DNA of 63,925 nt, filler included, from an uncultured Acidimicrobiia bacterium (GTDB lineage: Bacteria; Actinomycetota; Acidimicrobiia; Spongiisociales; JAOTWH01), in assembly GCA_964347285.1 (NCBI GenBank). It is 6 parts of 6 records of this genome, joined end to end, with 100 filler letters (N's around TTAATTAATTAA, not from the genome) between each part and the next. Parts side by side here need not be neighbours in the genome. Positions count along the whole stretch, not along the records: positions 25,254 to 37,231 come from CAYFYE010000078.1; positions 37,332 to 49,297 come from CAYFYE010000079.1; 4 more parts are not named here. One strand, written 5' to 3'. A program made the position numbers. Of the stretch, positions 36,001-42,000 are shown piece by piece. The first letter of the stretch is position 1. Each line of letters begins with the position of its first letter.

Positions 36001-39000
36001 TCCTCAAGATTCTGGAGGGCACCGTCGCCTCAGTCCCGCCCCAGGGCGGTCGCAAACATCCCCACCAGGAATTCATTCAGATCGACACCACGAACATGCT
36101 GTTCGTCTGTGGCGGCGCCTTTGCCGGACTCGAACAGGTCATCGACCACAGGATCGGCAAGCGTTCGGTCGGCTTCGACGCTGAGATCCACCCTCGCTCT
36201 GAGTATCGGTCCGGCGAGGTGCTCGCCGAGGTGCTTCCCGAGGACCTCATTCAGTACGGTCTCATCCCCGAGTTCGTGGGCCGCCTCCCGGTGGTCGCCA
36301 CAGTCGACGACCTGGACGAGGCCGCGCTGGTTCAAGTTCTACTTGAGCCTAAGAATGCGCTGACCAAGCAGTTCATCAAGTTTTTCGAGATGGACGGAGT
36401 CGAACTGGTGTTCACGGGCGACGCTCTCGACGCCGTCGCCGATCAGGCACGGCTACGGGGCACCGGTGCCCGCGGCTTGCGGGCCATCCTCGAGGAAGTT
36501 CTCCTCAACACGATGTACGAGCTCCCCTCGCGATCCGACATCGCCCAAGTGGTCATCGACGCCGAGGTGGTGCGGGAACGGATCAATCCCGCCCTCATTC
36601 CCATCCAGGAGCTGGGCGCAGAGCCTCCTCAGGAGCAGTCGGCTTGAGTCCGGGGCTCCGCCCCTCTCGGTAGCCGCCGCGACACCGATTACGCCGCCAG
36701 TCGGTTGGGGGGTCGCGAAAAACCCCGAAGTCGCGTTTCCGAGACGGGCCTGAAGTGGCCAAAAAAATGAAACAACACGCTGAGCGCGCCGCGACGACGG
36801 CACCGTATAGTGGACGGACCACACGGTTGGGCGGAGGGAAGATGTCGATCACCCCACGGGCGTACGTGCGCCGCAAGCTCTCGATCCTCTGGGTGGTGGC
36901 TCTTCTTGCGTCCCTCACCAGTGGGCCGCTGCTCCCGAACGGGTTTGCCTACGGCACCAAAGACACGACCACCGGTCAACCCGACGTCGCGAGCGAAGAC
37001 GTCGCTGCGTCCGAAGCGCCTTCTGCTGAGGAGCCCACCGCCGAAGAGCCCCGCGTGGTCACCGAGGAAGAGTTGGCCGCCGCAGAGAGCGTTCCCGAAG
37101 AACCCGACCCCGAAGAACCTGCTCCAGAGAGCGTCCCCGAAGAACCCGCCCCCGAAGAGGGAGAACCCGCCCCCGAAGAAGGAGAACCCGCCCCCGAAGA
37201 AGGAGAAGCCGCCCCCGAAGAAGGAGAAGCCNNNNNNNNNNNNNNNNNNNNNNNNNNNNNNNNNNNNNNNNNNNNTTAATTAATTAANNNNNNNNNNNNN
37301 NNNNNNNNNNNNNNNNNNNNNNNNNNNNNNNGAGCCGAGCTCAAGAGCCTCCTGAACAGCCTCGAAGCCACGACCCTTTACGTCACCCACGACCAGGTGG
37401 AGGCGCTCAGCATGGGGGACCGCATCGCCGTGATGAACCAGGGCGAGCTCCTTCAGGTGGGTGCTCCGCTGGAGATCTACGACAATCCCGCCTCCCACTT
37501 CATCGCCAGCTTCATCGGGAACCCCCCGATGAACTTCCTGGAGGCCGAGGTACTCGACGGAGGCCGGGGGGTGCGGGTTCACGACGTCGACCTGGCCCTG
37601 GCTCCCCGCGATCGCCGCTCGGGGTCGGTGCTCCTCGGCATCAGGGCGGAGTCGATCATCGTCCACACCGAAGAGCACGCCGGGAGCCTGCCCGCCAAGG
37701 TGATCGTGATGGAGCCCCTCGGCGACCACAACCTCCTGACCGTGGGGACCGTGGGAGATCAGCTGAAGGTGAGCACCCGTCCCGACTCCTTCTTCGACGG
37801 GGGCCAGGAGATATGGCTCGAATTCACCCCGGAGAGGGTGCGGTGGTTCGATCCCGAGTCCGGAGCGTCGATCCGCTGAAGCGGGCCCGCGGTCGGTTTC
37901 ATCCGGAGCGACAGAGGAAGAAGGAGAGGCCCTCGGTGTCGATGTCCAGGTCGCGTGCGTCGAAGACCTCCACGTCGCCGAGGCCGGCCTCGGCGAGGGC
38001 CGTGGTGACCTCGTGTTCCGAGAAGCAGCGCTGGGTCAGCGCCAGGTCCTCACGCCGCCACCGGTCACCATCCGGCGTCAGGATCGTGAAGTCCATGCGG
38101 CCGATCCCCTCGCCGGCGTCGAACTGTGATCGGGCCACGATCACCTCGTCGTCGCTCACGATCCCGAACGAGCCTTGCCAGCGGGACCGGAACCCCTCCT
38201 CCATGTTCAGGTCGAAGAGGAACGGAGCTGCCGGGGCAAGGACGTCCGAGACGCAGCGAAAGGCCCTCGTCAGGTCGGACGGCGTCATGAGGTGATTGAG
38301 GCTGTCGAAGGTCGATACCGCGGCATCGACCGGCCCGGGGAGAGTGAACGATCGGGCGTCGGCGACTACGAACTCGGATGCCGGCGCGTTCCGTCGGGCG
38401 TGGCCGATCATGGCCTCCGAACCGTCGATGCCGACGACTCGGTAGCCGCGATCGCCGAGGGCGGCGGCCAGTTGGCCGGTTCCACAGCACAGATCGAGCA
38501 GCACCGAGTTTTCGGCAAGATGTTCCAGGATCAGCCGGTCGAGGGCGGGTAGCACGCGAGTGGCCATCTCTCCCCAGTGCCGGTTGTAGGCGTCGGCGAA
38601 CGGGTCGTAGTCCGTGTACCGGTTCACCCGGCTTCCCGTCGGCCGGTTCAGGCCCGGCCGGCGGCTACCTCGTCTTCCCGGGTGCGGCCGGCGAGAAGGA
38701 TCAGATCTTCGTGAAGCTCGAACCAAATGGTGTGGTAGCTGTCGACCCGGGGCGAGGCGATGTAGAGGTGGTCGCCATCGCGGTTGTGAGCGGCGGCCCG
38801 TTCCAGCCGGGCCCGGTAGGCGTCGAGACGAGGAAGGTCGCTGCTCAGCGGCCGGAGCCACGCCACCGCCTCGTCGTGGAGCGAGTCGAGCCGGTCCAGC
38901 ACCGAGGCGTCGTAGTTCCGATCCGAGTGGTCGTTGAGCACCTGCTCGCCGTCCACCTCGCGCATCTGCCAGGCCGTGACCGCCTCCTTCATTCGAACAT

Positions 39001-42000
39001 CGAGCGCCAGGAACGCGTCGAGTGCTTCGACGGCATTCTCTGCACCCCACTGCTCGCGATCGGCCCCGATCATCTCAGCGCCGAGGGTCTTCCCGTCTGC
39101 AGTCAACTGGAACATGCCGCCGGCGAGTTCGGTCACCCCGTCGGCCGTCATCCGATCGAGGACCGAGGCCATTTCCTCTTCGGTGGTGAACAGCGCCGGT
39201 GCAAGCCCGTCCGGCGTCACGAATCCCTTGATGAGAAGGGCCCGGACGACCTCCTCCACCTCCGGCGGGCCGGCCTCTGCTGCGGTCTCTTCGGGCTCGG
39301 GCACGGTCGTCCTCCTCTCTATGGGCCGTTCGACCTCGATCCCGAGCTCCTCGGCCCAGGAAAGGAGCCTCGCAGCCTCGGGGACGATCGTAGCGACGCT
39401 GACCACCGCACCTGCGAAGACCTCGCCGGTGCCGCCGTCGATCGTGAGCATGTCTCCGGGGTGGAGGGTGTGGTCGCCGATCGAGACCGCGTCTCCGTCG
39501 ACCTGCACGGCCCCGGCTCCGACGACCGCGGGGATTCCCCATCCCCGGGCCACCACTGCGGCGTGGCTGGCCAAACCGCCGGTTGAGGTCAAAATCCCGG
39601 CCGCCCGGGCCATGCCGTGGACGTCATCGGGGGACGTCTGAGGTCGGACCAGGATGACGCTCCGGCCCGACTCGGCCATCGCCACGGCCGCCTCGGGGGT
39701 AGTGGCGATCTCGCCCGAGGCCAGCCCCGGTGACGCCGGCAGCCCCACCGCCACGACCGGAACATCCTCGCTTCGCTCGACCGGCGTCGTCGGGGGGTTC
39801 TCCAGGTGTTCGGCCACCCGCTCGACCGCTTGGGCGCGGGAAAGCGGAAAGTCCTCGTCCTCGGCCATCTCGACGGCGAGCCGCAGTGCCGCCTGGGGAC
39901 TCCGCTTGCCGATGCGCACCTGGAGCATCCAGAGGCGGCCCTGCTCGATCGTGAACTCGATATCACAGAGGTCGGCGTAGTGGCGCTCAAGGGTGTCGGC
40001 GTATTGCCGGAGCTGGGCGGCGACCTCCGGCATGCGCTCGTCGAGCACGGCAATGGGCTCGGTCCGGTGGGTTCCGGCGACGACGTCCTCGCCCTGAGCG
40101 TCGAACATGACGTCGCCGTACAGAGTCGTTTCCCCGGTGGCCGGGTTCCGGGTGAAGATGACACCGGTTGCCGAATCGGCGCCCCGGTTGCCAAACACCA
40201 TGGCCTGCACCGTCACCGCCGTCCCCAGGTCGTCCTCGATGCCCTCGTGGGCCCGGTAGCTCCGGGCCCGGTCACTGTTCCACGATCGAAACACTCCCTC
40301 GATCGCTCCGCGCAGCTGCTGCCACGGATCGTCCGGGACGGCGGCAACGCCGACGATGTCTCGATACATGGCCGAAAAACGGTCGCGGCACGCCTCGGCG
40401 AATGCGCGATCCCCGGACACCGCCGCCAGCCCTTCCGCCGTTCCATCGTTGAGCCCGAGGTTGAGGATGGTGTCCATCATGCCCGGCATCGAGACCGGGG
40501 CTCCGGAGCGGACGCTCACCAGCAAGGGATCCGCCGCATGGCCGAACCGACGGCCCACCGCCCCTTCCAGGCGGCCCAGGTGTTCGCGGATCTCCGCGTC
40601 GAGCCCGCCGGGCCAGCCGTCCGTCAGGAAGGCCCGGCACGCGTCCGTCGAGATCGTGAAGGCGGGGGGAACCGGCAGGCCCAGCTCGTTGGCCATCACC
40701 GAGATGTTGGCCGCCTTGCCTCCGATGAGCGCGGTGACCTCGGCCGGCGACGCGTCGTGCGGATGGTCGAACGCGAAGACGTAGGGCACGTTTTCGGATT
40801 GTAGAAAGCCTGCTTGGTGGTCCGGCTGGGGCCCGGTTTGTGCCTCCCTGAAGATGCCGGTGCCGGCCGCGCCTTGAGGCCGGCCGGGGTGTCGACCCTC
40901 CTTACCTCGACATCGGCATCGACTCGTAGACCTCGATCGCACACCCCTCCGCCCAGTCGAGGTGGGGATGGCCTTCGAGCAATGCCTTCGCTCCGGCCAT
41001 GTCCTCGGCCTCGAGGATCGAGTAGCCGGTGACCTCCGAGTCGGTCGGGGAGCTGCCCGACGCGGTCAGGCGCTGGCCGCCGCCGAGCGGAGAGCCCATA
41101 TCCACCAGCTGGTCCCCGCACTTCGCCGCCCAGGCCATCCACGGCTCCATACCCTTCTGCATCTCTTCAGGCGTGGCATTTGCCGCAGCCTCGACCCAGG
41201 CCACCGGTGCGTGGTAGAGAACGATGAATCGGCTCACAGTCTCCTCGATCGACGACCCGGCCAGTCTACGTGACCCCGTGGCGCGAAGCCTCGAAGTATC
41301 TCCGGCGGAGGGTGCCGTTCTAGCCTCATTGTCGATGTCGCTCGATCGCACCCGACTTCGCAGCGGCCCGGCCGCCGGTGCGCTGCTGCTGGTCGTCGTT
41401 GGGGCCTGCACCGCCTCCACCGACACGACTGCCGGAGCGGCGCCGGCCTCGACCGACCCCGTCGAGACGGTGGGCACAGCCGCCGTGCCGGCCCCAACCA
41501 CGACCACGTCGATCCCTGCCGACTTTCAGGCGCCCGTCTCGACGTCGGTCCCCGCCGCTCCCGGGCCCGATCCAGCGCCACCGGAGCCGGCCCTGCCGGA
41601 CGGGTCGAGCGGAGTGGCGGTCGCGGCCGCCGGGGGAGCGGTCATCGCCGAGGAACCGGACGGCATTCCGTTCGTGCGGGCTCACGAAGGTTTGGTGTTC
41701 CCGGTGGTGGGAAGGCGGGGGCGGTGGCTGGAGGTGGCGACCCCTTGCGAGACCACCGCCTGGGTCGACGGGGACCACGTTCGCTTTGTGCCGGGCGCGT
41801 TCGGCGGCGAGGCGCTCGGGGCGGGCTTCGCCATGAGCGACGCCGTCGTGGTGCTCGATCCCGGCCACGGCGGTCCCAACACCGGGGCCGTCGGGCCGCG
41901 GGGCACGATGGAGAAGGACCTCAATCTCGACATCGCCCGGCGAACCCGGGATCTGCTGGAGGCTCCGCACGCCATCGATTGGGAAACGGGAGCCATCACC

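Follow-up and report, generated by a model that had tools for sequence, protein, structure and literature searches.

The protein encoded by gene g02025 in the window, i.e., the whole 63,925-nucleotide stretch of DNA analyzed here, appears to be a phosphoryl donor with a built-in His-to-His carrier that feeds orphan RPH/HpeH-like enzymes, a reading to which we assign a probability of roughly 0.6 and whose phosphotransfer step is inferred. First, the ATP-grasp domain would phosphorylate His409 on the swivel domain, as PPDK does and as has been shown for VadK. The swivel is then predicted to dock on a C-terminal domain of the Rv1126c family (C), where the phosphate would pass to His686. Phospho-His686 would in turn charge a swivel histidine on another protein, an RPH/HpeH-like enzyme with a substrate-binding domain but no ATP-grasp, and this enzyme would finally phosphorylate a small molecule. 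Within the clade of the window protein, the acceptor would be a protein of ~580 aa, here termed c4.

Gene model and domain architecture

The reading frame starts with GTG and is uninterrupted (Table 1); an alternative upstream GTG would yield 764 aa, and close relatives start at the position that gives 713 aa. Pfam detects PPDK_N (best stretch, residues 64-246) and PEP-utilizers (residues 377-455), whereas PEP-utilizers_C (PF02896) is absent and the final ~250 aa match no family, in agreement with the initial annotation, which described the gene as devoid of a PEP-binding domain. The NCBIfam scores given there are reproduced (502.3 against a cut-off of 456 for PRK05878; 532.3 against 843 for TIGR01828), and the phospho-His409 and ATP-binding Arg94 it listed are indeed kept, in the motifs SHAAVVAR and SVRSGA, respectively. 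Lys25, Asp276/Glu278 and Gln290/Arg292 of the ATP-grasp domain are presumed functional residues, assigned by their roles in PPDK. Arg94 was previously equated with VadK Arg106, a residue taken from the available part of PMC13400623. A canonical PPDK (TIGR01828) was considered and rejected, given the absence of PF02896 and the score of 532 against 843; the same genome encodes a separate PPDK of 900 aa, which scores 1226 with TIGR01828.

Table 1. Features of the fused protein, in window coordinates.
Feature	Residues	Coordinates	Strand	Remarks
ORF, 713 aa	1-713	38648..40789	-	PPDK-derived ATP-grasp + His swivel + linker + Rv1126c-family domain; no PEP/pyruvate barrel
ATP-grasp domain	~1-330	39800..40789	-	Lys25, Arg94, Asp276/Glu278, Gln290/Arg292
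His-swivel (PEP-utilizers) domain	341-466	39392..39769	-	phospho-His409 codon 39563-39565
Linker	467-509	39263..39391	-	span between swivel and winged helix
MarR-like winged helix	~509-581	39047..39265	-	Z 12.5, rmsd 1.2, 73 aligned to 2rdp
Four-helix bundle	~583-713	38651..39043	-	His686 codon 38732-38734, predicted phospho-acceptor touching His409

The linker measures 37-65 aa (median 46) in the fused loci measured. The Rv1126c-family domain spans 204 aa, and its predicted fold (pLDDT 95.7) is a MarR-like winged helix followed by a four-helix bundle; a sequence search for a solved homologue of this domain found none. The bundle carries the near-invariant residues W607, Q608, N619, H621, D627, S684, H686, W689, H693 and R704, with His686 lying within a DSYH motif. 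With regard to HPt/DHp domains, which are helical bundles with an exposed conserved His, a structural search gave the FAT-like p130Cas as best match to the bundle (Z 12.6, rmsd 2.2, 111 aligned, with a query wider than the bundle alone), a similarity no greater than common bundles would show.

DNA-binding MarR regulators are expected to have a basic recognition helix. The winged-helix fold is present in C, but a basic, conserved recognition helix and wing are not: across 234 sequences, the median net charge is -2 for the winged helix and -3 for the recognition helix, and conservation is lower in the winged helix (0.43) than in the bundle (0.56). Being net acidic and poorly conserved, the winged helix is probably not DNA-binding. 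That C is a one-component transcription regulator, with phosphorylation controlling DNA binding, is thus hardly credible, despite the fold, the NCBI name of the mycobacterial homologues ("MarR family transcriptional regulator") and weak Foldseek hits that are GntR/FCD-like in their overall layout; moreover, Lys521 of the winged helix, a conserved residue, forms part of the predicted interface with the swivel, and loss of VadK leaves prpC/prpD transcription unchanged (PMC13400623, available part).

Distribution of the fusion and identity of the partner

The initial annotation of a truncated kinase fused to a ~200-aa Rv1126c-like domain holds, both halves lying in one open frame. The halves are joined in 66 of the 80 closest genome loci and split in 9, while the other 5 contain only the C-domain; given this prevalence, the fusion is no assembly artefact. 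All nine split loci stem from one MAG set, and in six of them the break falls inside a domain, which suggests frameshift errors. As previously described, mycobacteria encode the halves as separate adjacent genes: of 79 mycobacterial loci, 68 have the gene for the N-terminal part (N) upstream of that for C, and the other 11 show no N match of at least 400 aa at the locus. The N-part of the fusion is 44.7% identical to the separate N gene product of M. simulans, and its C-domain is 36% identical to the partner there over 200 aa (E 1e-39), so that C has a full-length homologue in the small gene adjacent to vadK in mycobacteria. The gene order is not fixed (15 N to C and 14 C to N among 80 motif-selected loci), and C is present in all 21 genomes with a VadK-type gene.

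The identity of this partner with Rv1126c itself had been put forward, with caution, on the basis of synteny, and the gene order is consistent with it in a comparison made without the H37Rv Rv1126c sequence. The M. simulans locus reads DUF222-(PE-PPE)-N-C, followed by WS/DGAT-like and alpha/beta-hydrolase genes on the opposite strand, and agrees with the H37Rv order Rv1128c, ppdK, Rv1126c, Rv1125, ephC, where we take Rv1128c to be the DUF222 gene and Rv1125 the WS/DGAT gene. Additionally, the M. simulans N gene matches by eye the H37Rv VadK row of the alignment in the available part of PMC13400623.

Relationship to VadK

The window protein shares with M. tuberculosis VadK (Rv1127c), the partner of Rv1126c, an architecture of ATP-grasp and His swivel without the PEP barrel, with the catalytic His and the ATP-binding Arg retained; a ~45-aa insert of canonical PPDK is missing from the ATP-grasp domain of both. 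They differ in that the two halves are fused in the window and the N-part belongs to another PPDK clade. Specifically, two quick trees place the window N-part in a fused clade (support 99) among canonical PPDKs and outside the VadK clade of mycobacteria, Nocardia and Streptomyces (support 100), so that its earlier assignment to the mycobacterial VadK family is not upheld. The window protein does exceed the PRK05878 cut-off on which that assignment drew, but this cut-off is not diagnostic, because the 900-aa PPDK of the same genome also exceeds it (522); M. simulans VadK scores 919. In an AU test, grouping the window clade with VadK gave p 0.034, and adding the sister fusions gave p 0.155, so that the test does not reject a single origin for all truncated forms.

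Role of the C-terminal domain

C works with the truncated dikinase, as indicated by the fusion, the adjacency in both orders, the 21/21 co-occurrence, the TnSeq states (see below) and the predicted interface. This part of the initial annotation stands, whereas the status of C as an integral subunit of the kinase, like the VadK-family membership, is not supported as worded. According to the available part of PMC13400623 (EMBO Rep 2026), VadK autophosphorylates on His422 and still does so after a 2 M NaCl wash that removes Rv1126c. Furthermore, C occurs in genomes without a detected VadK-type gene (27 of 48 C-bearing genomes) and is fused to non-kinase acceptors. C looks like a downstream phosphate carrier rather than a part of the ATP-using step.

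Closest to the integral-subunit idea is a C that replaces the lost PEP barrel as substrate domain, making the fusion a self-contained small-molecule dikinase. Although C occupies the place of the barrel and has a conserved polar pocket turned towards His409, it is also fused to ATP-grasp-less proteins that have their own substrate domain (8/36) and is near-invariant across pathways with widely differing neighbours, unlike a substrate-specific domain, making such a replacement very unlikely.

The carrier reading draws on a predicted contact between the two histidines. A complex model of the swivel (residues 341-466) with C (residues 510-713) scores 0.81, compared with 0.00 for the best of three controls, a score that expresses confidence rather than affinity and that covers the window protein's own swivel, not that of an acceptor. 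For calibration, 116 of 157 solved complexes and 2 of 215 mismatched pairs score at or above the mark applied, counts that are only approximate for our own alignments. At least 96% of contacts are common to the runs, with a partner pLDDT of at least 90. His409 is predicted to contact His686 and Phe690, and the predicted interface also includes Lys601, Gln608, Glu694, Arg704, Lys521-Gly522 and the wing of the winged helix. At position 686, 232 of 234 diverse C domains have His, as do all 135 paired rows drawn from four architectures.

H621 and H693 are as invariant as H686 in the 234 C domains, and the cluster of the three could have a metal or hydrogen-bonding role. C might act as an adaptor or catalyst without becoming phosphorylated itself, the phosphate passing directly from one swivel His to another or with the help of water or metal placed by H621/H686/H693. 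The three invariant histidines together with Asp/Glu residues fit this mechanism, which accounts for the same fusions and co-occurrences; however, the model sets His686 against His409, where an acceptor would sit, and conservation suggests no evident second swivel-binding surface. We consider this mechanism unlikely, if worth keeping in mind.

Architectures and partners of the proposed carrier family

The His swivel is the constant companion of C, which is fused to donors, to ATP-grasp-less acceptors or to both in one chain. Among 36 long C-bearing representatives, 24 combine ATP-grasp and C, eight combine acceptor, swivel and C without ATP-grasp, two (P0268, P0220) carry acceptor-swivel, ATP-grasp, swivel and C in one chain, and two are unclassed. 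In a class sample of 301 genomes, C is present in all 53 that encode a 120-aa stand-alone swivel, compared with 100 overall, and the two genes are head-to-head neighbours in 32 of the 53. The nine genomes of this sample with a close C-domain (eight of them fused) all carry a close c4 acceptor, which is found in just 11 of the 301; of the other two, G112 has only a distant C and in G034 no C was detected. P-values for such co-occurrences overstate the association because the genomes are related. C also stands alongside a PPDK without its ATP-grasp (G001, G002), and in G346 it immediately precedes a PPDK whose ATP-grasp match is weak. The carrier family would be general, its further partners including full PPDK, PEP-charged half-PPDKs and stand-alone swivels, in an HPr-like hub role.

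The c4 proteins match only PF00391 and RPH structures. This genome contains a 75% identical copy on a separate contig (C127), its swivel cut off at the contig end.

A candidate relay to mycoketide in mycobacteria

Somewhat short of even odds, in our estimate, is the broader proposal that members of the Rv1126c family act as a hitherto undescribed His-to-His carrier akin to HPr, powering ATP-site-less kinases in Actinomycetota, Chloroflexota and Pseudomonadota, with VadK, Rv1126c and Rv2047c in series supplying the phosphate of mannosyl-phosphomycoketide. Three mycobacteria (M. uberis, M. simulans and M. colombiense) yielded no PPDK_N protein besides VadK and a single further swivel protein, a member of the PRK05865/Rv2047c family, which lacks an ATP-grasp; in two of the three its gene adjoins a PKS. 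A strong Rv2047c-like match occurs in 7 of 181 genomes of a Mycobacteriaceae sample, all seven with N and C, and in three of them 12-15 kb separate this gene from the N-C locus.

Rv2047c (PRK05865) is an orphan protein with reductase, RPH-like and swivel parts and no ATP site of its own; it adjoins pks12 and has long been proposed to phosphorylate mycoketide, a step without assignment since 2008 (PMC2443190, PMC7058343). The available parts of these two papers name no phosphate donor for it. It would be a client of the carrier system, not a homologue of the window protein, and in slow-growing mycobacteria its family is the predicted acceptor, with VadK-Rv1126c as candidate phosphate source.

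TnSeq data in the available part of PMC7058343 give Rv1126c and ppdK the states NE-ES-GD-NE-NE-ES, Rv2047c NE-ES-ES-NE-NE-GD and pks12 NE-GD-GD-NE-NE-GD, whereas prpC/prpD are NE throughout. The four profiles are similar, with the HMM states of neighbouring genes not being independent, and in a table of ~4000 genes Rv1126c, ppdK, Rv2047c and pks12 all stand near the top, in rows 19, 12, 1 and 17. The same profile is common to about ten unrelated genes (mmpL5, mmpS5, Rv0455c, irtAB, murI, Rv1339, mmpL11). Also weighing against the relay, the mouse data assign ppdK to module 06 but Rv2047c and pks12 to module 16, and Rv1126c to none (PMC8846590), and a co-essentiality preprint that does not name ppdK, Rv1126c or Rv2047c lists pks12 under a cholesterol module.

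VadK was reported as a kinase essential for M. tuberculosis virulence (PMC13400623); in the available part of that work, its phospho-acceptor is not identified, Rv1126c is given no function and serves solely as a solubility aid, and Rv2047c, pks12 and mycoketide are never mentioned. C could be a regulator or phosphatase that caps or dephosphorylates the swivel His, the output of VadK-type proteins being the regulation of methylcitrate enzymes as proposed there. Separating Rv1126c from VadK requires 2 M NaCl while autophosphorylation does without it, PrpC/PrpD were found in the VadK co-IP, and the vadK deletion is rescued by B12 (PMC13400623, available part), all in line with such a role. Against it, Rv1126c insertions phenocopy ppdK loss instead of opposing it, C is fused to acceptor enzymes, AlphaFold3 support for a VadK-MCS complex is low (ipTM 0.36; PMC13400623, available part), and the prpC/prpD family is absent from 51 annotated neighbour clusters; we regard this role as quite improbable. 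In the co-IP table, with its filter of at least 50 PSM, Rv1126c and Rv2047c are both unlisted (PMC13400623, available part), which speaks against the relay.

If true, the relay from VadK through Rv1126c to Rv2047c recasts part of the reported role of VadK, and His686 and its DSYH motif, together with the client class, make the questions of the VadK acceptor and of mycoketide phosphorylation directly testable. The carrier family could also explain many orphan "PEP-utilizing mobile domain" proteins without an ATP site.

Comparison with known phosphotransfer systems

In the PTS, enzyme I phosphorylates a histidine of HPr, which serves many acceptors. The proposed relay resembles it in that a homologous swivel-His domain would charge the histidine of a small carrier with several acceptors, and PEP-charged donors also occur in the Rv1126c carrier family. 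It differs in the carrier fold (winged helix and four-helix bundle here, alpha/beta in HPr), in its usually ATP-driven donors and in its acceptors, which are swivel enzymes and not EIIA.

In the literature covered on Rv1126c, Rv2047c and swivel, phosphocarrier or dikinase proteins, seen in part and with most subscription papers outside coverage, no such relay proposal was found; what is new here is the contact predicted between the two histidines, the fusion of C to acceptors or to donor and acceptor in one chain, its partnership with stand-alone swivels and the link to Rv2047c. The two-component small-molecule dikinases HpeHI, CreHI and PpsAB (PMC12167813, available part) have acceptors that, like the c4 proteins, are RPH-like, with substrate domain and swivel and without ATP-grasp. 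The HpeHI donor, however, is a bare ATP-grasp and the system has one phospho-His, whereas the window donor has its own swivel His409 and an unrelated His-bearing domain, which would place up to three histidines in series. Similarly to the Ensifer 3hpd Orf9/Orf10, which lie beside a Mo-hydroxylase (bioRxiv 10.1101/2020.01.08.898148, available part), relatives of c4 are encoded in catabolic clusters of the Mo-hydroxylase kind, together with genes of the xanthine-dehydrogenase family.

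The fusion and its genomic setting

The fusion is read in a single frame. Its contig (C79) measures 11,966 bases and belongs to a 2.6-Mb genome that is 90% complete; the nearest relatives of the fusion belong chiefly to Acidimicrobiia and Chloroflexota MAGs. Pfam recognizes an ATP-grasp domain (PPDK_N) and a His swivel, with both His409 and Arg94 kept, but detects no PEP barrel, and the C-terminal ~250 aa match no Pfam family. Fusion is the state of 66 of the 80 closest loci; another 9 are split, and 5 carry the C-terminal domain (C) without the kinase part (N). The split loci, all from one MAG set and 6 of them broken within a domain, are read as frameshift errors. 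The frame, the domains and the 66 fused loci thus bear out the initial annotation of a natural fusion lacking the PEP-binding domain. The housekeeping enzyme must be another protein than the fusion, because the same genome also encodes a complete 900-aa PPDK.

The window consists of several joined contigs, and therefore genes facing each other across spacers are not real neighbours. The methyltransferase gene beside the fusion was not counted as a member of the system, as no class I SAM methyltransferase occurs among 51 annotated neighbour clusters. Two further genes of this genome, a PPDK fragment and one for a protein resembling an ATP-grasp, are included in the table.

Coordinates of the features discussed
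Feature	Sequence	Position	Strand	Length	Remark
Fusion gene	window	38648-40789	-	713 aa	
Class I SAM methyltransferase gene	window	37899-38651	-	~250 aa	start abuts fusion stop codon; not seen among conserved neighbours
N spacers with TTAATTAATTAA linker	window	12595-12694, 25154-25253, 37232-37331, 49298-49397, 60953-61052			join separate contigs
PPDK fragment	L281 (G000:C29, own genome)	4159-5974			broken, two frames; adjoins adenylate-cyclase-like gene
Protein resembling ATP-grasp + degenerate swivel	L322 (G000:C64, own genome)	1462-2976		504 aa	SPAAH motif; separate operon
c4, full-length	L001 (environmental relative)	740-2470			locus has its own fusion gene, 2830-4971
c7, unannotated	G000:C104 (own genome)	801-1673		~290 aa	own-genome copy, 76%
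VadK with C-terminal tail	L204	6325-7989		tail ~50 aa	on most mycobacterial VadKs
PPDK without ATP-grasp (swivel + PEP barrel)	L357 (G002); L358 (G001)	463-1977 in each		504 aa	
c31, fold unknown	L123 (also L422-L430)	3241-4800		380-520 aa	travels with stand-alone swivels
Y_phosphatase3 (tyrosine-phosphatase-family) gene	L008	3674-4465			adjoins N-C module

Relationship to VadK and Rv1126c

Membership of the VadK family had been proposed from the PRK05878 score, a cut-off that does not discriminate: the full PPDK of the same genome also passes it (522 > 456), and a true VadK scores 919. In two quick trees, the window N-part falls outside the VadK clade (support 100) and within a clade of fused proteins (support 99) among canonical PPDKs. 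The second of these searches used LG+G4 on 33 chosen rows with insert columns removed; rows that were duplicate or partial, or came from unpublished genomes, were excluded. An AU test weakly rejected grouping the window clade with VadK (p 0.034) and did not reject placing all truncated forms together (p 0.155). The N-part is thus VadK by architecture, though not demonstrably by descent. At least three fusion events are suggested, since two other fusions branch apart from the window protein: that of a Nocardia (L083) within the VadK clade, and that of a Chloroflexia member (L096) together with a canonical PPDK.

Support for equating C with Rv1126c is strong, and it is syntenic, because the H37Rv Rv1126c sequence itself was returned by neither the genome scan nor the protein search, a caveat of the initial annotation that holds. 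C shares 36% identity over 200 aa with the gene directly 3' of the M. simulans VadK orthologue; the gene order at this locus is that of H37Rv, and the M. simulans N gene agrees by eye with the H37Rv VadK row in the alignment of PMC13400623. As had been claimed for mycobacteria, the halves are adjacent separate genes with N upstream (68/79 loci). In a set of 80 motif-selected loci, N is fused to C in 24 and lies nearby in 37, and 19 carry C only, with both orders represented (N to C, 15; C to N, 14). Naturally split pairs occur, for instance, in Streptomyces (L097), Halopolyspora (L120) and Acidithrix (L109). The tail of most mycobacterial VadKs is missing from the H37Rv row of that alignment.

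The C-domain and its predicted contact with the swivel

AlphaFold2 models C with a pLDDT of 95.7 as a MarR-like winged helix followed by a four-helix bundle. A DNA-binding regulator, as the fold might suggest, was rejected on the grounds of charge and conservation: across 234 C sequences (<70% identity) the winged helix varies and has an acidic net charge (median -3 for its recognition helix), and the near-invariant residues (W607, Q608, N619, H621, D627, S684, H686, W689, H693 and R704) lie in the bundle. The family is large (1869 clusters at 50% identity in a profile search) and has no Pfam match. A PDB sequence search found no solved homologue (0 matches at E <= 10), and Foldseek gave nothing at E <= 0.001. 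In a VIA search winged-helix matches dominate, HPt folds being absent among the matches listed, and an Atlas search returned solely unnamed or 'MarR' clusters.

A complex model that pairs the swivel (341-466) and C (510-713) scored 0.81 (best control, 0.00). Both chains come from the same natural fusion, and solved structures exist for the swivel fold. The score mark is reached by 116 of 157 solved pairs and 2 of 215 mismatched ones, counts that are approximate for our own alignments. Runs shared at least 96% of contacts, with partner pLDDT of at least 90. In the model, His409 contacts His686 and Phe690, and the predicted interface also comprises Lys521, Lys601, Gln608, Glu694 and Arg704. The model supports swivel-C binding, not phosphate transfer as such. 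Two Arthrobacter loci (L133, L149) encode degenerate C-domains in which the NDH motif is gone and DSFH is kept, hinting that His686 is the core residue; in L133, C lies directly 3' of a 131-aa swivel.

Swivel proteins as the constant partner of C

The partner of C is the swivel, whatever protein carries it. Of 160 loci from two scans, a few duplicated between scans, 29 contain c4, an RPH/HpeH-like protein that combines a swivel with a substrate domain and lacks ATP-grasp, and 9 contain c18, a swivel protein of smaller size. The window genome has a 75% identical c4 copy, cut by the end of contig C127, and c7 accompanies fusion and c4 in 24 loci. In a class sample of 301 genomes, which are related rather than independent and include the unpublished G218, G248 and G264, a close C-domain is found in 9 (8 fused; in G287, C without a close N), all with a close c4; close c4 is found in 11, the exceptions being G034 and G112. 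A stand-alone swivel of ~120 aa occurs in 53 genomes, all 53 with C (100/301 overall), and in 32 of them head-to-head with it; the unpublished G218 and G264 count among both the 53 and the 32.

In two genomes (G001, G002), C occurs together with a stand-alone swivel and a PPDK without ATP-grasp, and no VadK-type gene was found; these PPDKs could possibly be PEP-charged, enzyme I-like donors. In G346, C lies directly 5' of a PPDK whose ATP-grasp match is weak. A donor is fused to C in 24 of 36 long C-bearing representatives, and an acceptor swivel in 8, which lack ATP-grasp. Both P0268 (1256 aa) and P0220 (1049 aa) unite all three elements, acceptor, donor and C, within a single chain, and the last 2 are unclassed. 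The c31 proteins, which have no Pfam or NCBIfam match and nothing above 0.81 in the Atlas, are likely substrate-binding partners of stand-alone swivels. A C-N-c18-c31 cluster typical of other groups stands in a record titled Klebsiella pneumoniae MAG (L129), whose taxon label may be wrong.

Mycobacterial counterparts

No PPDK_N protein other than VadK was found in M. uberis, M. simulans or M. colombiense, and their one remaining swivel protein belongs to the PRK05865/Rv2047c family, which lacks ATP-grasp; in the latter two species its gene adjoins a type I PKS. Strong Rv2047c-like matches occur in 7 of 181 sampled Mycobacteriaceae genomes, all 7 with both N (21/181) and C (48/181), and two weak matches occur without both. 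In three genomes the Rv2047c-like gene lies 12-15 kb from the N-C locus.

Rv2047c was proposed to phosphorylate mycoketide (PMC2443190). Rv1126c, ppdK, Rv2047c and pks12 share a TnSeq profile absent from prpC/prpD and also found in about ten other genes (PMC7058343). Against a link of these genes, in vivo modules place ppdK apart from Rv2047c and pks12 (PMC8846590), and the excerpts of a co-essentiality preprint draw no link among the three. The VadK co-IP table, to which a 50-PSM filter was applied, likewise speaks against it, as it contains PrpC/PrpD and neither Rv1126c nor Rv2047c (PMC13400623; deposited data, PXD073941). On cholesterol, Rv1126c, Rv1127c, Rv2047c and Rv2048c are depleted (ratios 0.086, 0.034, 0.099 and 0.152; Griffin 2011), data that do not discriminate because prpD/prpC are depleted too and pks12 alone of the four is significant. 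None of the four is listed in the supplements of Serafini 2019, and the available text of a 2026 Pks12 preprint mentions neither Rv2047c nor ppdK or VadK. The lipid test in the VadK paper was 2D-TLC reporting PDIM and SL-1, with mycoketide unmentioned in its excerpts (PMC13400623). A link between VadK-Rv1126c and Rv2047c/pks12 has about even odds, and need not exclude the methylcitrate findings of that study.

A proposed phosphorelay

ATP would phosphorylate His409, as shown for VadK His422 in PMC13400623. The phosphate may then pass to His686, a step for which the contact is predicted by the model, and, as fusions and co-occurrence suggest, to the swivel His of an orphan enzyme, which by analogy with HpeHI and RPH (PMC12167813) would phosphorylate a small molecule. 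VadK freed of Rv1126c keeps its autophosphorylation (PMC13400623), which fits C as a downstream acceptor and argues, for the ATP step, against the 'integral subunit' of the initial annotation, whose observation is confirmed and whose interpretation stands only in part. The fusion failed membership tests as a canonical PPDK, strict VadK orthologue, HpeHI-type donor or MarR regulator; in operation it would resemble a split dikinase to which a carrier step of the PTS type has been added. If His686 proves to be phosphorylated, the carrier would be categorically new.

A Mo-hydroxylase is the core of the cluster in the fusion's clade, as it is in the Ensifer 3-hydroxypyridine cluster, whose dikinase pair is described as essential and unexplained (bioRxiv 10.1101/2020.01.08.898148). 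A hydroxylated aromatic or heteroaromatic compound is the probable substrate of the relay. The Y_phosphatase3 gene, present at L008 and 9 other loci of distant taxa, could take the phosphate off the product.
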